From the sequence record OQ703618.1: 64,000 nucleotides of DNA; one strand, written 5' to 3'. A program made the translations under genes and the position numbers. A model generated the notes under the pieces. That model saw only the letters and a program-made list of their open reading frames with translations. It searched no databases and was not told where the DNA came from. Source of the DNA: Escherichia phage GADS24. Positions 2,489-62,734 of this stretch are shown here, one piece after another (the first letter of the stretch is position 1; the number at the start of each line of letters is the position of its first letter).

Positions 2489-2761
2489 TTAGTTGTTAGA
2501 ATACATCGCTAAATGACGATAAATATTTTCAAAACCTTCATTGAATTCACTAATCAGTGTTTTCTTTTCTTCGGCAGTTAAATTTGTAATTAGTTTTCTG
2601 AACGAATTCTGATTTAACTGCCGACCATCTTTTTTAATTCCAATCTCATTCAAGAATCCGATGAAACTTGCTCGGTCTTCAACAATATCTTCCCTAGAGA
2701 ATTTAATCAAAATAGAAGCAATAGTAATAATTTCACGTACGATTTCAATGTCTTTATTCAT
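2489..2761 (-). CDS. asiA: Anti-sigma70 factor AsiA
   Basis: 90 aa; MNKDIEIVREIITIASILIKFSREDIVE matches recalled T4 AsiA. Confidence 0.9.
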   Translation of the reverse strand: MNKDIEIVREIITIASILIKFSREDIVEDRASFIGFLNEIGIKKDGRQLNQNSFRKLITNLTAEEKKTLISEFNEGFENIYRHLAMYSNN

Positions 2762-2807
2762 AACGTTTTATTCATTCCACTTAGTTGATATGGATATAGT
2801 ACCATTA

Positions 2808-3023
2808 TCAGTGTTGATTGTAAACGGCTTTTTCTACGCTTTTAACGTAATTGGTATAGTCTTCCTGTTCGTACGAGTGTAAGGCCAAGAACGGAACTAA
2901 TAGTTCATTATAGACTAAAGCCTCACGCTCACGTTCGGCCTCTACTACGTTCTGAAGATTATGACTCATATCGTTCCTTATAACTATCAATGTAGTCCTG
3001 TATGTCGAAGAACGACATTTCAT
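2808..3023 (-). CDS. Hypothetical small protein (arn region); likely starts at an internal Met
   Basis: ORF on the gene-dense minus strand between asiA and motA; overlaps the next ORF at its 5' end. Confidence 0.3.
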   Translation of the reverse strand: MKCRSSTYRTTLIVIRNDMSHNLQNVVEAEREREALVYNELLVPFLALHSYEQEDYTNYVKSVEKAVYNQH

Positions 3024-3345
3024 ATTCTAGGGCATTAAGAGCCCGTTCTTCAGTATAGTCAGAACCAAAGACGATAGTGATTTCACCAGGCTTCATGTGA
3101 TTGAAATCAACACTAAAAGGAATACGAGAACATACTTCGTCTGCCATATCTGCAACAACACTACGATACACTTCTCGGTTAACCTGATAAAGCTCTGCGA
3201 GTTCTTCAGAACGAATAACAAGTTCAGTGGCAGGATTTTCTTTGATTTTAGTAAGCATAGTCTTTACCCTTATGTTTTTGTTTACGTTTAGATTGAAGTT
3301 CTGATTTCTTCTTGTCCTTATGGACGGAAGCCTTATTGAAATCAT
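2959..3345 (-). CDS. Hypothetical protein in the asiA-motA interval (arn-like position)
   Basis: ORF on the coding strand; probable true start at internal MLTKIKENP; function not recognised. Confidence 0.45.
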   Translation of the reverse strand: MISIRLPSIRTRRNQNFNLNVNKNIRVKTMLTKIKENPATELVIRSEELAELYQVNREVYRSVVADMADEVCSRIPFSVDFNHMKPGEITIVFGSDYTEERALNALEYEMSFFDIQDYIDSYKERYES

Positions 3346-15726: not shown

Positions 15727-16086
15727 TTATTTAAATTTAATTTTCTGAAGTGCATCAATTGCAGCCAAACGCCCTTGTTCACTTTTAACTGTAATGACCA
15801 CATCGCCTGATACGATCACCGAACCATCAACAAATTCTATAGAGCCTTTTTTGAAATCGACCGCTGTATCTGGTTCCGGAACTTCTTCAAAGAATTTAAA
15901 TTCTGCACCATAAAGCAGAATATCACCTTGCATACTATGAATAGTTCGACCATAATCACCTACGGCTTCTACAGCAATAACAGAAACGCCGTAACCAATC
16001 ATCTCTTCCACAATAAAATCTTTGGACAATAAAGTAGTATGCAGATTAGTATTAAGACGTTTACCAGTCGTATTAAGAAGTCTCAA
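15727..16086 (-). CDS. Hypothetical protein (39.1-like); start uncertain (TTG in track)
   Basis: ORF upstream of gene 39 followed by a UUCG-loop terminator; a short ATG ORF in another frame lies just upstream. Confidence 0.45.
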   Translation of the reverse strand: MRLLNTTGKRLNTNLHTTLLSKDFIVEEMIGYGVSVIAVEAVGDYGRTIHSMQGDILLYGAEFKFFEEVPEPDTAVDFKKGSIEFVDGSVIVSGDVVITVKSEQGRLAAIDALQKIKFK

Positions 16087-16338: not shown

Positions 16339-16749
16339 TTATTCCTTAAAATGTGCTTTCAACATTTGATACAAAGACCATGCCTGGTCGGTATTTTCGA
16401 TAGTAATCGTCATCACCGGAAATTCAGACAATTCGTCAAGTTCACCAGAATCTTGCTCTTCAGACGCTTGATACGGATTTCCAACTTCGTCAAAGAACTC
16501 TGCTTCATTCGTAGAGAGCCAGATAAAGTTTTCATCAAGGATATCACCACCTGTTGCGTATCCAACCGCACCAGTAGATGTTAAAATTTTAGTAGGACGT
16601 CCGAGATGGTCAACATCTAAAATTTTAAAAGGTTCCATGCCAAGACGTCGTGCATAAATCCCATTATCAGTGTGGTCTTTAATAAACTCTTCTTGGGCCC
16701 GTTTATCTATAAATTGGTACCATGAGTTAACGCGGAATTTATTAGCCAT
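16339..16749 (-). CDS. Hypothetical acidic protein (about 136 aa)
   Basis: Trimmed to MANKFRVN with SD GGAAGGAAA; TAATG overlap with upstream ORF. Confidence 0.5.
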
Positions 16750-16976
16750 TAGTAAGTTTCCTTCCAATAAGTTGTACCATTTTCAGTGATTTCACGGAAG
16801 ATGCCATAGATAGGCATTTCGTCACCGAGTTTTTCGTAAACGTAAACCACTTCGGTGTAGCATAAAAATTCAGTCCAGCTTTTTTGTACAACAACTAAAT
16901 CAGGATTAAACAGAACATCTTCAAACTCATTGATGTTTGAATCAGTAGTTACGTTTTTAATGATTTGACGTTTCAT
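16749..16976 (-). CDS. Hypothetical protein (about 75 aa)
   Basis: Trimmed to MKRQIIKN with SD AAGAGGAGAA; early-promoter cassette immediately upstream. Confidence 0.45.
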
Positions 16977-16994
16977 AATATTCTCCTCTTGTTT

Positions 16995-17035
16995 TGATAG
17001 GTCTATAGTATCATAGACCATAGTTGTTGTACATC
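16995..17035 (-). promoter_or_regulatory. Early promoter/stem-loop cassette
   Basis: Minus strand TGTACA..GGTCTATG-ATACTA-TAGACCTATCAAAAC. Confidence 0.45.
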
Positions 17036-17558
17036 ATTTTAGCAAAATAAAATCAACTTGTTCTGCCAATGAACGTCTGAACATTAATTGACAACTTCCG
17101 AGGATGAAATCAGGTGCTTCATAGACCGCGATGTAGTATCCTTTAGCTTTCAAGAGTTCAACATCCACCTGGTCATCAAACCATGCATAAACCGCGTCAA
17201 CACTTTCAAATCCAAAATAGAACCCTTGAGCCCAATCTTCGCTCAATTCAAATGCGTGATCAATTCTATAGTATCTTAAGATATTTTGTTCAAGGAGTTT
17301 GTCTTCATTTACTGTAGGACGATTAGGGACATTATAGTTGTCGCCGTGATGGTAGAAGTTACCTGAGAGTATTCCATGCTTATCAAGGAACTCCCATGTT
17401 TCTTCAGAGTTGTCGGTGCCCGACCAACCGTATGGCGAGCGAGGTTCTTTATTCCAAGAGGTTTCCCAAATTCTGACGGCTTTACCGTCTTCGATAGCAA
17501 TTCCAGGTAATGATTCACGTTGAGTACAAAAACTACGTTCTACGCGGTAAACTAACAT
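17034..17558 (-). CDS. Hypothetical protein (174 aa)
   Basis: Minus-strand ORF preceded by an early-promoter cassette with SD. Confidence 0.55.
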   Translation of the reverse strand: MLVYRVERSFCTQRESLPGIAIEDGKAVRIWETSWNKEPRSPYGWSGTDNSEETWEFLDKHGILSGNFYHHGDNYNVPNRPTVNEDKLLEQNILRYYRIDHAFELSEDWAQGFYFGFESVDAVYAWFDDQVDVELLKAKGYYIAVYEAPDFILGSCQLMFRRSLAEQVDFILLK

Positions 17559-17571
17559 ATTATTCTCCTCT

Positions 17572-17612
17572 GGTTGATATGGTTATAATATCAAAACCAG
17601 AGGAGAAGTAAA
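17572..17612 (-). promoter_or_regulatory. Early promoter cassette
   Basis: Minus strand GTTTAC-17 nt-TATTAT upstream of SD AGAGGAGAA. Confidence 0.45.
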
Positions 17613-17617
17613 CAACT

Positions 17618-18037
17618 TTATGCAAAAGCAGCTGGGCTATATTTTTTAATTTGGAATTCAGGAACTACCATGAACTGTCCAGCGAAAACGATGTTATAAA
17701 GCTTGACACCATCTTCTACCCAACGGTCGCTAATAAATCCAGCGATTTGCTTAGTTTTCCACGGCGTTCCATCAGTTGCCGCAGCAATAGTGAATTCATG
17801 GTCTTTTTCAACAGAAACTGATCTGCATAGTCCCCATTTGAACGCTTTTTCTTCTGGTTCAATGAATTGGCTTTTAACGTAGCCAATATTACCATTAGCA
17901 TCACGAACTTTAACTTGGTTACGGCCAAAAACCGGATCACTCACAGAAAGAACTTCAACCAACTTCCCGGCAACTTTAGAGCGAGAAGCAACAGATACAT
18001 ATACGTAATCACCTGTAGAGAGATTTACAATATTCAT
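17618..18037 (-). CDS. Paralog family member A (139 aa), unknown function
   Basis: Shares N-terminal ASRSKxAGxLVEV and C-terminal FISDxWVEDGxKLYNIVFxGxFxVV motifs with the two adjacent ORFs. Confidence 0.55.
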   Translation of the reverse strand: MNIVNLSTGDYVYVSVASRSKVAGKLVEVLSVSDPVFGRNQVKVRDANGNIGYVKSQFIEPEEKAFKWGLCRSVSVEKDHEFTIAAATDGTPWKTKQIAGFISDRWVEDGVKLYNIVFAGQFMVVPEFQIKKYSPAAFA

Positions 18038-18046
18038 AATAATTCC

Positions 18047-18544
18047 TTAAGCTTTACGAGGAGACACATAGCGAGTGATTTCAGATTCTTTAACAACTCG
18101 GAAGTCACCTAAGAATACGATATTGTATAACTTTTCACCATCTTCAACCCATTGGTCACTAATGAAGCCACACATAATATCAGTTTTGCTTGGATATCCG
18201 TATTCGTCGATGTAATCAAATTCTTTATCGGTTATAAATTCAACGCCTTTGCAAAGGGCCCATTTAAACTGTGTAGTAGGCTCAACGATATCGTTTGAAG
18301 CAAAGTGTGCAGGTGCAACTTCTTCGCTTGAAGCAAATTGGACTCGTATATGTTTTTCCAGGAATTTAGGACTTACGTAAGCATACTGGGCATCTTGTCC
18401 GCCAAAACTAGGAATGATTCGAACTTTAACTTCTTTAATACGTCCCATGCCATTTGTGCGAAGTCCGACAACTTCAACCAGACGACCTGCGGCTTTAGAC
18501 CGGGATGCAGTTGATACACGTTTAATTTCACCAATAGTAATCAT
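18047..18544 (-). CDS. Paralog family member B (about 165 aa from internal ATG)
   Basis: Same motifs as 17618-18037; trimmed to MITIGEIKRV with SD; own promoter cassette upstream. Confidence 0.55.
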   Translation of the reverse strand: MITIGEIKRVSTASRSKAAGRLVEVVGLRTNGMGRIKEVKVRIIPSFGGQDAQYAYVSPKFLEKHIRVQFASSEEVAPAHFASNDIVEPTTQFKWALCKGVEFITDKEFDYIDEYGYPSKTDIMCGFISDQWVEDGEKLYNIVFLGDFRVVKESEITRYVSPRKA

Positions 18545-18561
18545 ATTTTTTCTCTCTTTGT

Positions 18562-18604
18562 TTAAGTTGAATTCATTATACTCCATCCATCCTTGGATGT
18601 ACAA
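18562..18604 (-). promoter_or_regulatory. Early promoter cassette (CCAAGGATGG spacer family)
   Basis: Minus strand TTGTAC-ATCCAAGGATGGATGGAG-TATAAT. Confidence 0.5.
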
Positions 18605-18606
18605 CA

Positions 18607-19101
18607 TTAATTTAGAATATTAACTACTGCACTACGTGGAACCACACTAAAGTCACCGGCATGAACAACGTTCAGAAGTTCAACCCCATCTTCAATCCAC
18701 TGGTCAGTTACCCAGCCACTTACCGGTCCAGCGAATGGTCGACGAATTGAAACTGCTTTACACAACAAGTCTGTAGGCTCAATAGGCTTAATCAGAGTAC
18801 CGTACATACAAGCGATATCCATATCAAAGTGGAGACCATCTTTAACAGGTGCTTCTTCAATCAACAGTTCAAAGTCAGTGCTTGGAATGGCGGTAGTAGA
18901 AATTGTACCGTGTGAATTTTTAATTTCTAAGAATAACCAAGGGCCTTCAGCTTGTTTGATGAAGTTAACAATAGTGAAACTATTACCTTGAGTGGCACCT
19001 AAAATTTCACAAAACTTTTCATAAGCTCGCACTGAAGCACCGTACCAGTTGATTTGTTTTTCGTCTTTCAGGATGTAAGTAGCCGTAGTATTGATATTCA
19101 T
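18607..19101 (-). CDS. Paralog family member C (164 aa)
   Basis: C-terminal WIEDGVELLNVVHAGDFSVVP motif shared with members A and B; own promoter cassette. Confidence 0.55.
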   Translation of the reverse strand: MNINTTATYILKDEKQINWYGASVRAYEKFCEILGATQGNSFTIVNFIKQAEGPWLFLEIKNSHGTISTTAIPSTDFELLIEEAPVKDGLHFDMDIACMYGTLIKPIEPTDLLCKAVSIRRPFAGPVSGWVTDQWIEDGVELLNVVHAGDFSVVPRSAVVNILN

Positions 19102-19119
19102 AATGTTTTTCCTGTTTGG

Positions 19120-19162
19120 TTAAGATAGAAAGATTATACTCCAACCATCCTTGGTTGTAAAC
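19120..19162 (-). promoter_or_regulatory. Early promoter cassette (CCAAGGATGG spacer family)
   Basis: Minus strand GTTTAC-AACCAAGGATGGTTGGAG-TATAAT-CTTTCTATC. Confidence 0.55.
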
Positions 19163-19167
19163 TGATT

Positions 19168-19845
19168 TTATCGCTGTTTTACACTTAACGGGTCAGGATT
19201 CTCAGGGACATCTTCAAGGCCAAGCGCATAACGCTGAGCATATTTTAACATCAAAATATCTTTAGCACAATCATGAATACTATCATGGGCAACGAATCCT
19301 TTTAGCGTACCCATCGGTAATGGACACATACTTAATCCTCGTGTCAACGAGTAAGCTTCGATTGCCGTACGAATATCGCGTTGAGCCCAGAATTTAACCG
19401 GTTCTAATTTATCGGTATCAATCTCTGGTTCAAGAACACCTTCATCACGATAGAGGTCACGAATCAAATCGACCAATATCGGGAAGTCAAAGCTCATACC
19501 ACGGCACCACATCTGTGATTTCCATTGGTCAACTTTATTAGCTCGGCAATAATCTAAAAAGATTTTAATGCCTTCAAGCGTAGTGACATCGTCTTCAGAC
19601 GGAGCTAGGTTTTTACGTGCTTCTGCTGATTGTTCTTTCCACCATTTCATAGTGGATTTAGCGAAAACTCGCTTCCCTTTCTGAGAAGCTAAATTAAATT
19701 TAATTCGCTTACCTCGTTGAACAAGTTCTTCAAATGATTCAACAACTTCAGGGTCGGAATTATATGCAATAACCGCAAGGTCAATAACAGCCGCTTTTGA
19801 TGTATTGCCGAATGTTTCAAAATCTATAATAACATCAGTGCTCAT
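19168..19845 (-). CDS. dexA: Exonuclease A (DexA), DnaQ-like 3'-5' exonuclease
   Basis: 225 aa (T4 DexA 227 aa); N-terminal IIDFETFG exonuclease motif; adjacent to dda. Confidence 0.8.
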   Translation of the reverse strand: MSTDVIIDFETFGNTSKAAVIDLAVIAYNSDPEVVESFEELVQRGKRIKFNLASQKGKRVFAKSTMKWWKEQSAEARKNLAPSEDDVTTLEGIKIFLDYCRANKVDQWKSQMWCRGMSFDFPILVDLIRDLYRDEGVLEPEIDTDKLEPVKFWAQRDIRTAIEAYSLTRGLSMCPLPMGTLKGFVAHDSIHDCAKDILMLKYAQRYALGLEDVPENPDPLSVKQR

Positions 19846-19854
19846 AATTTTCTC

Positions 19855-21168
19855 TCAAATAAAATGGACGTCAAACCGACCACGAGTTGTGCCAACATAC
19901 AATAACTGTTTAGCTAATTCTGAATCGGCATAATGGATACACGGTGTATAAACAAAGGCCGTGTCAACAGACATACCCTGGGCCTTATGGAAGGTTGATA
20001 CTGGTAGTGCCTTCACCTTAGTGAACATACGTTTAGCATCCCAGAATTCGCTCCATGGAGCTTTACCACCTTTATTCCAAAATTTGTATGTTTCTGCGGT
20101 TTTAGCCAAAAACAAATTGAATTTATAAAGCTCTTCTTCAGAAGAAATAACCTTTATATCTTCGCGGATGTATTCTTCATCATCCCCATATGTTTCTACT
20201 GTAAGATTCCAGTATCGTATCATATATTCGCCTGAAACACCCCGTGCTTTAACAAATGTAGACGTTTCTACAGCATCTCGAATACGAACGAATTGTCCGT
20301 TATTGAAAAGCATTTCAGTCATATTTTTGCCATCTAACTTATATGTCTTGGTAAACGGCTCTTGTAGAACAATGACTTCATCTTTAATAAATGGCTTTTC
20401 TGTTTCGAGAAGTTTTCGGCGAATAATTGAATTTAACTTGTCTACTGACTTATTTGTGAATGCCATCATTCGATTTTCGAAAAGGTCTTCAGGAGTTTTA
20501 ACGACGTTAAAATAATTCATCATATACGATTTAAGGTCTGTATATCCGTGAACACCGTGCCCATCAACTACTTTATCGTAAATCCATTTGCCATTACGAA
20601 TATCAGTCGCAACATCAATAATTGGTGCATTGCTACGTTTAACTTCTGTAAGGTTGCATTGCACGAAGTCTTTGTGTGTGAAGAAAGGACTTAGATACGC
20701 AGTTGATTCGCCTGGGTCTACCGGACGAATTTGGCATCGGTCGCCGATTCCAATTACTGTACACCATTTAGGGATACTAGCTAACATTATTTTAAACAGA
20801 GAACGGTCGCACATTGACGCTTCATCAAATAACAGCACACGGCACAAGGCTAAGTCTGGAACCTTTTTCTGTTCAAATAATACGTTTTCTTCGTATGTAG
20901 TTGGGTTGATTTTAAGAATGCTATGAATAGTCGATGCTTCTTGACCTGCGAGTTTGCTTAGAACCTTTTTAGCAGCATGTGTAGGGGCTGCTAAAATAAT
21001 ACCTGATTCTCCAGAAGAAATAAGGGCTTCAACGATGAATCTAGTAAGGGTTGTTTTACCTGTACCAGCAGGCCCATTAATAGTTACGTGATGTTTCTTT
21101 TCTTTAATAGCGTTCATAACAACGTTGAAGGCGTTTTTCTGGCCTTCAGTCAAATCATCAAATGTCAT
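19855..21168 (-). CDS. dda: Dda DNA helicase (SF1)
   Basis: 437 aa; Walker A GPAGTGKTT, helicase motifs, MTFDDLTEGQKNAFN matches recalled T4 Dda. Confidence 0.9.
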   Translation of the reverse strand: MTFDDLTEGQKNAFNVVMNAIKEKKHHVTINGPAGTGKTTLTRFIVEALISSGESGIILAAPTHAAKKVLSKLAGQEASTIHSILKINPTTYEENVLFEQKKVPDLALCRVLLFDEASMCDRSLFKIMLASIPKWCTVIGIGDRCQIRPVDPGESTAYLSPFFTHKDFVQCNLTEVKRSNAPIIDVATDIRNGKWIYDKVVDGHGVHGYTDLKSYMMNYFNVVKTPEDLFENRMMAFTNKSVDKLNSIIRRKLLETEKPFIKDEVIVLQEPFTKTYKLDGKNMTEMLFNNGQFVRIRDAVETSTFVKARGVSGEYMIRYWNLTVETYGDDEEYIREDIKVISSEEELYKFNLFLAKTAETYKFWNKGGKAPWSEFWDAKRMFTKVKALPVSTFHKAQGMSVDTAFVYTPCIHYADSELAKQLLYVGTTRGRFDVHFI

Positions 21169-59430: not shown

Positions 59431-59735
59431 TATAATGTTCTCTCAAATTTGTGGAAGCATTTACGGCATTTCAATTTCAAGTTATCAGTAGTCCAGTTAA
59501 CAAGTTGGACTTGGATAGTTCCACATTCTGGGCATGGATGTTTTGCTGCCGATTTGGCAGCATTTTCACGCCGTTCAACCATTTTCATGATTTCGTTCCA
59601 TGCCGGAGGAACGAACTCTTCTTCACCGTGGATTTTATCTCGCTGAACAAATTCAATCTTTGAACTATCGTCAATAAACTTAACCAAGCTATGATTAGTG
59701 CTCATATCAATATCCTCTAAAAGACGTAGTTTCAT
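59430..59735 (-). CDS. Small zinc-ribbon protein (101 aa)
   Basis: CPEC..(18)..CRKC four-cysteine arrangement. Confidence 0.5.
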   Translation of the reverse strand: MKLRLLEDIDMSTNHSLVKFIDDSSKIEFVQRDKIHGEEEFVPPAWNEIMKMVERRENAAKSAAKHPCPECGTIQVQLVNWTTDNLKLKCRKCFHKFERTL

Positions 59736-60685
59736 TATAAAACCTCAATGGCATTTCGTAAACCGTCCGCTTTCGCATTCAGAGCTTTTAACGATTTAGT
59801 TTGTTCTGCAATCTGGGCTTCGACTTCTTTCAGACGAGATTTGAGGTATTCGCGTTCTTCTCTTAAATTATCAACTTTTTCTGCTTTAGGTTCTTTAATA
59901 GACTTAGGTTTATACGTATTAGGGTTCTTCAGCTTAATTTGAATACGAGAACTGAATAACATTGAACCGTTATCTTCGGTTTCGCTGAACATTTCAACAA
60001 CATCCATAGTCTGTAGTATCATACGAAGTTTATAAGACAATGAACGAACGGTTTTGTTATGCTTATTAATTTCTTCAGCTTTCATGGTACCGAGATTACG
60101 TGAGTAGTAATAAGGAACCTGGATATCAATTGATAATGATGCGTTACCATTACCGGTTGGTTTGAATACTGCAGTAACCCAATCTTTAACATGAACTTTA
60201 TTTGTACGACCATCACCGCCCGTGAATAATTTACGAGAATGTTTAAAAAGCATATTCACTTGGTTATTGAATTCACAAGCAAATTTATCAGCAAATTTAG
60301 TTTCAGGAATGGTAGATAACCAATCAGCCAAATGAGTCTTTTTAACATCATTAACAATAGTGAATTCAACCAAATCAGTTTTAGATGTCACAGATTTAAT
60401 AAAGCTTGGCTTCATAAAGTTTTTAATGTTATCACGAGCCACAGTAGAAGATAATAAACGAGAACGTTTGAACCATTGAAGCAGTGTCCCTAATGAATGA
60501 GAATACGCATTCTGAGTATCTTTACAGATATGATTTTCTTGACCTGTGTATGTACCAAAATCTCGAAGAATACCACTTACTACATCTCGGTGTGGAACAT
60601 CAAATCCTAATGAACCGGAAGCACGTTGGGCATGAACGTTAGCGATAAGACCTGCAAAATAATCAATGTAATGTGAACGTGTCAT
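59735..60685 (-). CDS. Hypothetical protein (316 aa) with C-terminal coiled coil
   Basis: Long ORF with own promoter cassette; C-terminal heptad-like region EEREYLKSRLKEVEAQIAEQTKSLKALNAK. Confidence 0.6.
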   Translation of the reverse strand: MTRSHYIDYFAGLIANVHAQRASGSLGFDVPHRDVVSGILRDFGTYTGQENHICKDTQNAYSHSLGTLLQWFKRSRLLSSTVARDNIKNFMKPSFIKSVTSKTDLVEFTIVNDVKKTHLADWLSTIPETKFADKFACEFNNQVNMLFKHSRKLFTGGDGRTNKVHVKDWVTAVFKPTGNGNASLSIDIQVPYYYSRNLGTMKAEEINKHNKTVRSLSYKLRMILQTMDVVEMFSETEDNGSMLFSSRIQIKLKNPNTYKPKSIKEPKAEKVDNLREEREYLKSRLKEVEAQIAEQTKSLKALNAKADGLRNAIEVL

Positions 60686-60699
60686 AATATTTTCCTCTC

Positions 60700-60743
60700 G
60701 TTAAGATAGAAAGATTATACTCCAACCGTCCTTGGTTGTAAAC
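60700..60743 (-). promoter_or_regulatory. Early promoter cassette (CCAAGGACGG spacer family)
   Basis: Minus strand GTTTAC-AACCAAGGACGGTTGGAG-TATAAT-CTTTCTATC. Confidence 0.5.
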
Positions 60744-60747
60744 TGAT

Positions 60748-61683
60748 TTATGGTTTTAATGCATTCATTGCGTTAAAAAGTTTAGAGTACTGCAACTGGA
60801 GCTTGGTAACTACTTGTTGAGCATCACGAAGCTTAGCTTGTGCTTTATCAAGTTCAACAGACAGTTGGTCCATAGTGCCCTTGATTTGATTATAATAGTA
60901 ATCTTCGGCAGGAAGAAGACCATTAGATATTTCCAGTTTAGTCGACGGTGAAGTGTATATAGATGGAGCAGTAGAATATGCACCTAGAACTTCAGCATTG
61001 CCAATTGGGGTTGCAGTAATTGACGCTTCGAACGTCGCATTTTCCTTTTTAAGATTTTGATAGTATTCAGAGTCTTTGTGCCACCATGGCGCAGGAACCT
61101 TTTTACCAATAGATACACGAGCCTGGATAGCGATATGGCCCTTATTCTTGATAGGGTTGATAATATTAAGCTCGCGAGAATAAATTGCTTTAATCTGGTG
61201 GATATTATCACCTAACACTTCCAACGCTTGGTGGAATACACGAGCAACGTTATCATTCTTAGGTTTATACGTAAGAGTGAATTCGTTCTCACTGATAACC
61301 ATAATTTCCAACTTATCGTAAGTATATTTCAAATGTTTCATGTTAATTGCTTGAGGACGAATACGAGAAGCAATGGCCATCAGATTGTTAAGGTTATTCC
61401 GGAACTGCTTAGCGAAATATTGTCCTTCACCACCAATACAAAAATTACGAAGTTTCTGTTTAGCTAATAAACGGCTGAACTCACCATTTTTAATGAACTC
61501 TTTAACGGGTGTGTTAGTAACGCATTCAAATTGAGTAAACTTACGAGAAGTAATCCCATAATATGAACAGACTTCCTCAATCTCTTCAGGAGTCTTTACA
61601 GGCATACGGATAGGATTAGGTCCTGGAGTATATGCGTTCGAGGTAAATTCTTTGATAAGTTCTCTACGTGTAATAAAAGCCAT
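60748..61683 (-). CDS. Hypothetical protein (311 aa) with C-terminal coiled coil
   Basis: Long ORF with own promoter cassette; C-terminal LDKAQAKLRDAQQVVTKLQLQYSKL. Confidence 0.6.
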   Translation of the reverse strand: MAFITRRELIKEFTSNAYTPGPNPIRMPVKTPEEIEEVCSYYGITSRKFTQFECVTNTPVKEFIKNGEFSRLLAKQKLRNFCIGGEGQYFAKQFRNNLNNLMAIASRIRPQAINMKHLKYTYDKLEIMVISENEFTLTYKPKNDNVARVFHQALEVLGDNIHQIKAIYSRELNIINPIKNKGHIAIQARVSIGKKVPAPWWHKDSEYYQNLKKENATFEASITATPIGNAEVLGAYSTAPSIYTSPSTKLEISNGLLPAEDYYYNQIKGTMDQLSVELDKAQAKLRDAQQVVTKLQLQYSKLFNAMNALKP

Positions 61684-61697
61684 TTTATATTCCTCGT

Positions 61698-61738
61698 GTT
61701 GAAAAATTTATTATACTCCAACCGTCCTTGGTTGTACA
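61698..61738 (-). promoter_or_regulatory. Early promoter cassette (CCAAGGACGG spacer family)
   Basis: Minus strand TGTACA-ACCAAGGACGGTTGGAG-TATAAT. Confidence 0.5.
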
Positions 61739-62734
61739 TCATTCCTTAAGAAGTTTTACTACTTGAATAAGATTAGCTCGTTCTGTTTTATTTTTACCGT
61801 TTAAGCCTGCTAATCGTGAGATTTCATCGTCAGTCTGTTGAATAGTTACATTAAGTTCGTTAATCAAAGCTTCAAAGTATTTGATTTGCTCAGCATGTTT
61901 TGATTCAAATTTCTGAACCGGAATAACGTCTTGGTTCAGTTCATCAATAAGGTCTTTAAGAGCATCTTCTTGGTTGATATCATATTCAACTTCTTTTATT
62001 TCTTCAACGAGCTCGTCTTTATATCTAACGTCTTTTAGTCCTGGAGCTGGTCCTGAAATCTCTTCTTTAAGAGTACAAACATATACATTACGGTATCTAA
62101 TGCCGTCTCGCTTGATATCAACTTCGTCAATAAATCCACAATGTTTAAGTCCAGAGCCGATTATGTCAAAATATCCTTGACGTTGTCCTTCAAACGTTAC
62201 ACGAACTACTAAGACAGTTTTGCCACCAACCTTTTGAAGCTCACATTTATAAAAGTCTGTTGAACCTGAATAACGCGGATGAGTTTTAAAGTTCATCTGA
62301 CGATCTAGGCCCATTTGTAAGCGTGCTGATACGGCCATAAAACGTGTTTGGTTCTCGTTAAGATGAGCAACAATCCGTTTCAAAGGCATTTTACCCTGTT
62401 CACGACCGAACAAATCAGTACGTCCTAGATTACGCAGAATGTTGTTAGAGTTAATCATCGACAGAACGTTAAGTTTATTCAGCGCGCTGAAGATTCCATC
62501 GGCCATTGATTTTCCGTAACCTTTACACGCTTTAATAAGCGCTCGCGGGAGATTAGTATAGATTTCAGACGGCATATGAAAATCAAATTTACTAGTCAGT
62601 AATTGATGAACTTGGATAGCAATTTGCTCATAATTAAGTGCTCTGCGATCGTTATGGTCTTTAAACCACACTTTAATCTGTGAAGCACATAAACCGTTAA
62701 TTTCATGTTTTACCGCATCAGATGTAATGCTCAT
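61739..62734 (-). CDS. Hypothetical protein (331 aa) with C-terminal coiled coil
   Basis: Long ORF with own promoter-like element; acidic/coiled C-terminus. Confidence 0.6.
   Translation of the reverse strand: MSITSDAVKHEINGLCASQIKVWFKDHNDRRALNYEQIAIQVHQLLTSKFDFHMPSEIYTNLPRALIKACKGYGKSMADGIFSALNKLNVLSMINSNNILRNLGRTDLFGREQGKMPLKRIVAHLNENQTRFMAVSARLQMGLDRQMNFKTHPRYSGSTDFYKCELQKVGGKTVLVVRVTFEGQRQGYFDIIGSGLKHCGFIDEVDIKRDGIRYRNVYVCTLKEEISGPAPGLKDVRYKDELVEEIKEVEYDINQEDALKDLIDELNQDVIPVQKFESKHAEQIKYFEALINELNVTIQQTDDEISRLAGLNGKNKTERANLIQVVKLLKE

Follow-up and report, generated by a model that had tools for sequence, protein, structure and literature searches.

Gene Organization of the Locus

The window, the whole 64-kb stretch of DNA analyzed here, belongs to an RB69/HX01-like T4-type phage of Mosigvirus (Tevenvirinae). 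Positions 17000–19900 (2.9 kb) showed 95–99% DNA identity to many Mosigvirus genomes, such as JN02, HX01, and moskry, and the annotation of the matching genomes lists two MotB-like genes at this locus. Three consecutive genes of 139, about 165, and 164 aa had been reported in a preliminary description of the sequence. The corresponding ORFs were confirmed on the minus strand and are called c1 (17618–18037), c2 (18047–18544), and c3 (18607–19101). The minus-strand gene order was dda (19855–21168), dexA (19168–19845), c3, c2, c1, a 174-aa gene (17034–17558), cef (16749–17021), a goF homologue, a zinc-ribbon gene, and gene 39. The cluster had been placed upstream of dexA, which holds in plus-strand coordinates only; by the direction of transcription, the three genes lie downstream of dexA.

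The c2 ORF extends in the 5′ direction to an ATG at 18607, giving 186 aa, and this extra stretch holds a promoter. The start of the 165-aa protein is the ATG at 18544, and its N-terminus, MITIGEIKRVS, aligns with that of T4 MotB, MIINIGELARVS. The 174-aa neighbor was considered as a fourth paralogue and rejected; it is a homologue of T4 MotB.2 (34% identity), which is unrelated to MotB. A six-frame hmmsearch of the 64-kb window for further MotB-domain copies returned only c1, c2, and c3 below E = 0.3.

Family Membership and Domain Composition

All three proteins scored above the gathering threshold of PF17613 (motB, 25 bits), with 75.9 bits for c1, 129 bits for c2, and 36.8 bits for c3, where the match spans aa 88–159. 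Over the whole protein, c1 and c2 both matched phrog_1671 ("MotB-like transcriptional regulator"; 6e-51 and 1e-63, respectively). The full length of c3 matched phrog_2333 (2.3e-81), and MotB profiles matched c3 only in its last ~40 residues. In blastp comparisons among the three, c1 and c2 shared 40% identity over 159 aa (90 bits), c1 and c3 35% over 57 aa (44 bits), and c2 and c3 35% over 55 aa (42 bits). It was checked whether this similarity was limited to low-complexity segments; it was real and not of low complexity. All three genes are intact and encode the family-invariant residues, and they are true paralogues.

The C-terminal segment that had been described as common to the three proteins was present in each of them (FISDRWVEDGVKLYNIVFAGQFMVVP, FISDQWVEDGEKLYNIVFLGDFRVV, and WVTDQWIEDGVELLNVVHAGDFSVVP). 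It contains the core motif D-x-W-[VI]-E-D-G-x-x-L-x-N-[IV]-V, and D, W, E, G, L, N, and V were invariant in the alignment of the C-terminal domain. The N-terminal segment ASRSKxAGxLVEV, also ascribed to all three, was found in c1 and c2 but not in c3, whose N-terminal domain is unrelated. Since c3 combines a MotB.1-type N-terminal domain with the common C-terminal domain, the locus did not arise as three tandem copies of a single two-domain protein.

The domain boundaries differ among the three genes. In c2, a basic KOW-like N-terminal domain (aa 1–62; 18359–18544) is followed by a variable linker (aa 63–93; 18266–18358) and the C-terminal domain (aa 94–165; 18050–18265). The long linker is lacking in c1, which consists of an N-terminal domain (aa 1–60; 17858–18037) and a C-terminal domain (aa 61–139; 17621–17857). 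In c3, the N-terminal domain (aa 1–85; 18847–19101) and the MotB-type C-terminal domain (aa 105–164; 18610–18789) are separated by a disordered linker (approximately aa 86–104; 18790–18846).

According to a published description, MotB joins a KOW N-terminal domain to a conserved C-terminal domain; MotB.1 has this C-terminal domain in common with MotB, but its N-terminal domain is different (PMC7827196). The SRSKxAGxLVEV motif and the KOW-like N-terminal domain of MotB proper ("Category 1" of PMC7827196) are present in c1 and c2. Both are lacking in c3, so that c3 does not count as MotB proper. A further mark of MotB proper is a location between dexA and cef with early transcription; the gene order found here agrees with this location, and promoter-like sites are present. 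In both of its domains (PTDLLCKAVxIRRPF...WVTDQWIEDGVELLNVVHAG), c3 fits the MotB.1 subfamily. The blastp comparisons with T4 gave 46% identity over 161 aa between c2 and MotB, with aligned N-termini, 37% between c1 and MotB, likewise over the full length, and 38% over 134 aa between c3 and MotB.1. Therefore, c2 is the MotB orthologue, c1 is a second full MotB paralogue of the RB69 ORF010c type without the inter-domain linker, and c3 is the MotB.1 orthologue.

Like T4 MotB, c1 and c2 carry the KOW-like N-terminal domain with an SRSKAAG motif and the DQWVEDGxKLYNxVF core of the C-terminal domain, and they occupy the same site between dexA and cef with an early promoter in front. They differ from T4 MotB in copy number (one in T4, two here), in being less basic, and, for c1, in the absence of the inter-domain linker of ~25–30 aa. 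Two motB copies and one motB.1 have been published for RB69 (PMC7827196, section 3.2), so a cluster of this kind is already known. We assign a probability of roughly 85% to the reading that the three genes are the motB.1–motB–motB-like cluster typical of RB69-like phages.

Frameshifts in the Reference Records of motB.1

T4 MotB.1 and the RB69 pair motB.1 and ORF012c (phrog_2333; "Categories 2–3" of PMC7827196) have the same N-terminal and MotB.1-type C-terminal domain types as c3, and their genes are likewise located immediately before motB. The difference is that c3 is intact at 164 aa, whereas the reference sequences are cut by 1-nt insertions to 119 aa in T4 and to 132 + 29 aa in RB69.

In the T4 reference (NC_000866/AF158101), the 119-aa motB.1 product ends in ...WVTDQWIGRWR*, and the next frame continues with EDGVELLNVVHAGEYSVVPRSAVVAILN*. 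The reading frame is split by an extra G, as seen when ATTGGAAGAT of the T4 reference is compared with ATTGAAGAT of the window. Other T4 records listed, including T4T, KJ477684-6, MT984581, RB55, and RB59, scored higher (1e-91), consistent with an uninterrupted motB.1, and an intact 143-aa motB.1 CDS was confirmed in MT984581. Compared with c3, the RB69 reference motB.1 (132 aa) and ORF012 (29 aa) contain two 1-nt insertions ~50 nt apart. The "Category 3" peptide of PMC7827196 thus represents the displaced C-terminus of MotB.1.

Promoters and Intergenic Elements

Two of the genes had been described as having their own promoter cassettes, and strong sigma-70-type sites were indeed found before c3 and c2. 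The early-type promoter-like site before c3 reads TTTACA-17-TATAAT (minus strand, 19161..19133) and agrees at 11 of 12 positions. The site before c2 reads TGTACA-17-TATAAT (minus strand, 18603..18575) and agrees at 10 of 12 positions. The two promoters have a common spacer, CCAAGGATGG(T/A)TGGAGTATAAT. With one mismatch allowed, this spacer occurred only 4 times in the window, with 0 occurrences expected; besides the copy in the c3 promoter, the copies were located at 18575–18596, 60714–60735, and 61710–61731. Two of the cassette copies flank c3 as direct repeats. Three ORFs of 311–331 aa lie beside the other two copies (59735–62734). They were considered as a further paralogue set and rejected, having no detectable similarity and belonging to three different PHROGs. 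No promoter of its own was found for c1, which starts 9 nt after the c2 stop codon and is therefore presumably co-transcribed with c2.

Promoter/stem-loop (PeSL) cassettes have been described in T4-like phages (PMC2839356, PMC4122927). The cassettes of the cluster resemble them in that TTTACW-N17-TAYWAT early promoters are repeated between genes of a plastic region. The site at 19161..19133 corresponds exactly to this consensus, and the site at 18603..18575 has TGTACA as its first hexamer. A PeSL-type hairpin in the c3 and c2 cassettes was rejected, since these cassettes folded no better than shuffled sequences (z = −0.51 and −0.23, respectively), and the lack of a significant hairpin distinguishes them from PeSL elements. 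The element that forms the 3′ boundary of the cluster (minus strand, 17563..17612) is PeSL-like in this respect, as it combines a promoter-like TTTACT-16-TATTAT with a strong hairpin. The hairpin at 17563–17607 had a folding energy of −28 kcal/mol (z = −6.05; 0 of 200 shuffles folded as well). It encloses the −10 region, and the ribosome-binding site of the 174-aa gene, GAGGAG, lies in its 3′ arm.

Predicted Structures and Domain Charges

The AlphaFold2 model of c1 (mean pLDDT 86.5, pTM 0.72) showed two packed all-beta domains, both beta-barrels. In the c3 model (mean pLDDT 80.7), the N-terminal domain covered residues 1–85 and the C-terminal domain residues 105–164, and residues 87–99 scored below 50. 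Each of c1, c2, and c3 is predicted to be composed of small SH3-like (KOW/Tudor-type) beta-barrels, with the NusG/Spt5 KOW and Tudor-type SH3-like barrels among the closest known systems. In a Foldseek search against viral models (BFVD), the matches were MotB-like or "KOW domain-containing" proteins from other T4-like phages, among them Potts1, phiR1-RT, PS2, Merlin, and CC31. Cold-shock OB-fold proteins were absent from the top matches, and the matches could not be attributed to one domain. A PDB sequence search with c2 retrieved no solved structure of any MotB relative (sole match, E = 0.69). Together with GoF and Frd.2, the N-terminal domain of MotB.1 has been placed in an LSm-like fold family, defined by a bent, five-stranded antiparallel beta-sheet at the N-terminus (PMC12152347, Kim et al. 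2025).

The net charge of the N-terminal domain was +7 in c2 (pI 10.7) and +5 in T4 MotB. The C-terminal domain carried −4 in c2, −2 in c3, and +2 in T4 MotB. The whole-protein pI was 8.6 for c1, 6.75 for c2, and 9.2 for T4 MotB, and c3 as a whole had a charge of −8 and a pI of 4.8. Being less basic, c1 and c2 may differ from T4 MotB in DNA coating.

These charges bear on which domain binds DNA. HHpred has predicted a cold-shock-type OB-fold, possibly DNA-binding, for the C-terminal domain of T4 MotB (PMC7827196, Patterson-West et al. 2021). The common C-terminal domain could accordingly be read as an OB-fold-like DNA-binding module, with which all three proteins coat DNA while the N-terminal domains modulate this activity. 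The mildly basic C-terminal domain of T4 MotB is in line with such a module, as is the conservation of this domain, which is stronger than in any other part of the family. However, both c2 and c3 have an acidic C-terminal domain, c3 is acidic overall, and we consider this explanation rather doubtful. Because the KOW N-terminal domain is strongly basic, whereas the common C-terminal domain has a net negative charge in c2 and c3, the N-terminal domain is the likelier DNA-binding part. DNA binding would most likely sit in the basic KOW N-terminal domain, and the common C-terminal domain would more likely be a protein-interaction or assembly module. The published OB-fold prediction conflicts with this assignment of the C-terminal domain.

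Distribution and Age of the Paralogues

The gene order in RB69 was the same, with dexA, motB.1, the 29-aa ORF012, motB, ORF010c (139 aa), motB.2, and cef, and a matching arrangement was found in the Mosigvirus genomes HX01, moskry, a20, PhAPEC2, and G53. In the Tequatrovirus genomes RB27 and ime09, motB is followed 9 nt later by a 139-aa copy. RB69 ORF010c and the "motB-like protein" of ime09 and RB27 are the same gene as c1, with 139 aa, 88–96% identity, and a start 9 nt after motB, and they showed no difference of note. A tblastn search with the C-terminal domain of c2 found 1487 places in 771 phage records. Mosigvirus and RB27-type phages typically had three places per genome, and the remaining T-even genomes listed had one or two. 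The motB and motB.1 genes occurred in hundreds of T-even genomes; c1 was absent from T4 and most Tequatrovirus.

The full-length c1-type proteins formed a tight group of 139–145 aa with 84–95% identity; nearly all were exactly 139 aa long, with one of 145 aa, and their clusters hold more than 200 member sequences. In an unbootstrapped neighbor-joining tree of identity distances, the c1 clade branched outside the T4-type, JS98-type, and RB69-type MotB clades. This position means either that the c1 duplication is old or that c1 evolved fast early. The identities of 35–40%, the same arrangement across Mosigvirus and RB27-type Tequatrovirus, and the presence of motB and motB.1 in hundreds of T-even genomes contradict a recent expansion.

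Natural hybrid genes were also observed. P0031, P0035, and P0098 combine the N-terminal part of motB (RB69-type or T4-type) with a c1-type C-terminal part, and the junctions lie at FKW(K)L or inside GFISDQWVEDG. P0035 and P0098 were placed beside c1 in the neighbor-joining tree because they are chimeras. P0098 was present in five contigs from several samples and is followed by no separate c1; likewise, P0035 is directly followed by cef. Hybrids without a separate c1 point to unequal recombination between tandem copies, by which a single gene replaces two.

Among 1.84 billion representatives, a C-terminal domain profile matched 40 clusters, of which ~27 were small single-stretch family proteins. 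The remaining clusters, long multi-repeat proteins with several very short matches each, were considered as non-family homologues and regarded as spurious. With only ~27 small family clusters, this domain seems to be confined to T4-like phages. The MotB.1-type C-terminal domain was joined to at least three N-terminal domain classes, represented by 88, 27, and 4 proteins among the 120 matches listed.

Selection on Genes and Domains

The dN/dS ratios were calculated by the Nei–Gojobori method between the window and eight relatives, gene-wide and per domain. The values were 0.04–0.15 for c1 and 0.09–0.29 for c2. For c3, they were 0.02–0.14 within Mosigvirus and 0.16–0.29 against more distant relatives. 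The neighbors dexA and dda showed 0–0.05 within Mosigvirus. Folded domains had dN/dS of 0–0.26, and the linkers, with 0.2–0.67, were the only relaxed part. The variation of c2 lay mainly in its linker, where identity among close relatives was 0.28–0.52 with indels. Within Mosigvirus, the C-terminal domain of c3 had dN of 0–0.03 at dS of 0.4–0.9, and that of c1 had dN = 0 among most genomes. For the same phage pairs, dS in the N-terminal domain of c3 was only 0–0.1, much lower than in the C-terminal domain, which suggests mosaic exchange at the domain junction.

Selection on c1, c2, and c3 is purifying at both gene and domain resolution. The diversifying selection that had been proposed was found in no partition, whether genes, domains, or linkers. 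An arms race of anti-defence or host-range type, as the cause of a recent tandem expansion, would agree with the location of the cluster in an early, plastic region, with a copy number that varies from one to three places per genome, with the hypervariable c2 linker, and with the ongoing recombination seen in the hybrid genes. However, the paralogues share only 35–40% identity, the c1 clade lies outside all other MotB clades, dN/dS reached at most 0.29 per gene and 0.67 even in linkers, and dN was ~0 in the C-terminal domain of c3 within Mosigvirus. In addition, neither a defence-related match nor a documented anti-defence role in the literature was found. The arms-race explanation is largely refuted at the gene level, and we hold it to be very improbable.

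It is also hardly credible that c1 is a redundant, decaying motB duplicate in which linker loss was the first step to gene loss: although c1 is short, lacks a promoter of its own, is absent from T4 and most Tequatrovirus, and forms a single hybrid gene with motB in several natural genomes, it shows the low dN/dS given above, a C-terminal domain with dN = 0 among most Mosigvirus, a nearly constant length among its full-length homologues, a confident and compact two-domain model, and all family-invariant residues (29 invariant columns among 69 MotB-family sequences, including the c1 clade). The cluster is an old, domain-shuffled set of paralogues under purifying selection rather than a fresh triplication shaped by diversifying selection.

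Functional Implications

T4 MotB, the characterized member of the family, is made early, and its overexpression is toxic in E. coli; it coats DNA, whether unmodified or containing glucosyl-hydroxymethylcytosine, in a sequence-independent manner (PMC6070864, PMC7827196). [quoted passage not shown] MotB de-represses H-NS-regulated host genes; it upregulated 75 host genes, about one-third of them in the H-NS regulon, and raised burst size ~2-fold (PMC6070864, PMC7827196). Deletion of T4 motB.1 gave no phenotype (PMC12152347). The preliminary description had suggested host interaction for tandem paralogues in a phage early region. This agrees with T4 MotB being a host-interaction protein (PMC6070864, PMC7827196), and the genes are true paralogues in a region that is early and non-essential.

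By homology, the cluster products would be early nucleoid- or H-NS-modifying proteins. By analogy with T4 MotB, transferred at 46% identity for c2 and 37% for c1, c2 and probably c1 would act on the host nucleoid. MotB may be connected to H-NS indirectly, by way of co-binding to DNA. Two early phage proteins that target H-NS, T7 gp5.5 and T4 Arn, are possible functional analogues in that they counter H-NS; their folds and mechanisms are unrelated to those of MotB. T4 Arn is a DNA mimic that targets H-NS. T7 gp5.5 targets H-NS as well (cited in PMC7827196) and blocks its oligomerisation.

In c3, the putative interaction module would be attached to an LSm-like, possibly RNA-binding, N-terminal domain. 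We tentatively propose that the C-terminal domain is an interchangeable docking module for one conserved partner, which might be H-NS/StpA, RNA polymerase, or the paralogues themselves. Such a role, possible though unlikely at present, would fit the acidic C-terminal domains of c2 and c3, the extreme selection on this domain (dN ~0 at dS up to 0.9 within Mosigvirus), its joining to N-terminal classes that are unrelated to each other, and the swapping of C-terminal domains between motB and motB-like in the natural hybrids. If the docking proposal is true, the paralogues would deliver different nucleic-acid-binding barrels, two KOW-type and one LSm-like, to the same host target.

The value of assigning the three genes to a motB.1–motB–motB-like cluster lies mainly in curation, as they map to the published MotB and MotB.1, and MotB is a T4 host-takeover factor linked to H-NS. 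The 119-aa T4 MotB.1 and the RB69 "29-aa peptide" derive from frameshifts in the reference records that other genomes do not have; in resequenced T4 and in other Mosigvirus genomes, MotB.1 is intact and has a full C-terminal domain, which matters for experiments using the 13.8-kDa MotB.1. From the charges and predicted folds of the domains, DNA binding would reside in the KOW N-terminal domain rather than in the common C-terminal domain. The natural motB/motB-like hybrids, in turn, show a route by which copy number changes in this cluster.

Recombination in the motB paralogues

The synonymous divergence of c3, the MotB.1 orthologue, was compared between its two domains using the same Mosigvirus relatives. 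The C-terminal domain (window 18610-18789) displayed a synonymous divergence of 0.4-0.9 with a dN of 0-0.03, whereas the N-terminal domain (window 18847-19101) displayed only 0-0.1. This difference in the sequences points to a mosaic exchange at the domain junction of c3.

Natural hybrid genes were carried by Logan contigs L012-L016. Their MotB-family products (P0031, P0035, and P0098) combined a motB N-terminal part, of either T4 or RB69 type, with a C-terminal domain of the type of c1, the linker-less MotB paralogue, and were joined at FKW(K)L or GFISDQWVEDG. On these contigs, the hybrid genes were not followed by a distinct c1 gene. Recombination between tandem motB paralogues lowers copy number.

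Promoter copies and neighboring genes

Two further copies of the early-type promoter cassette (CCAAGGACGGTTGGAGTATAAT) were located on the minus strand at window 60714-60735 and 61710-61731, sharing about 50 nt of flanking identity with the cassette before c3. These copies flanked a 311-aa ORF (60748-61683). This ORF and its two neighbors (316 and 331 aa) each fell into a different PHROG, all three of unknown function, and no mutual similarity was found among the three ORFs.

A promoter-like site had its -10 region enclosed in a strong minus-strand hairpin (window 17563-17612; -28 kcal/mol, z -6.05). The 174-aa MotB.2 homologue had its ribosome-binding site, GAGGAG, in the 3' arm of this hairpin. 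The arrangement suggests that translation of this homologue is blocked on read-through transcripts and allowed on transcripts begun within the hairpin.

Two minus-strand ORFs (window 15727-16086 and 16339-16767) both matched phrog_622 and goF-related PHROGs, so that a paralogue of the goF homologue, of the RB69 ORF005c type, apparently lies close by on the far side of the zinc-ribbon gene. From its TTG start, this paralogue comprised 119 aa in the window, compared to 140-145 aa in relatives.

Annotation of c2 and reference motB.1 genes

The ORF of c2, the MotB orthologue, can be extended by 21 codons at its 5' end through its own promoter (window 18545-18607, minus strand), and because of this extension its length in public annotations differs, from 151 to 197 aa. 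In the matching stretch, the HX01 annotation places a 22-aa 'modifier of transcription' CDS.

Compared with c3, which is intact at 164 aa, motB.1 of the RB69 reference (NC_004928.1, locus 2716-3212) carries two 1-nt insertions that split it into a 132-aa product and the 29-aa ORF012. This displaced MotB.1 C-terminus is the '29-aa Category 3 peptide' of PMC7827196.

The T4 reference motB.1 (NC_000866.4, locus 2643-3151, minus strand) was likewise frameshifted. A 1-nt insertion (an extra G) ended it early, at 119 aa, within the conserved C-terminal motif, and the 28 leftover codons (EDGVELLNVVHAGEYSVVPRSAVVAILN) lay in the next frame. The resequenced T4 genome MT984581 encoded an intact 143-aa MotB.1, and in further T4-type records motB.1 scored like an uninterrupted gene. 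The 13.8-kDa MotB.1 of published work may be a truncated form.
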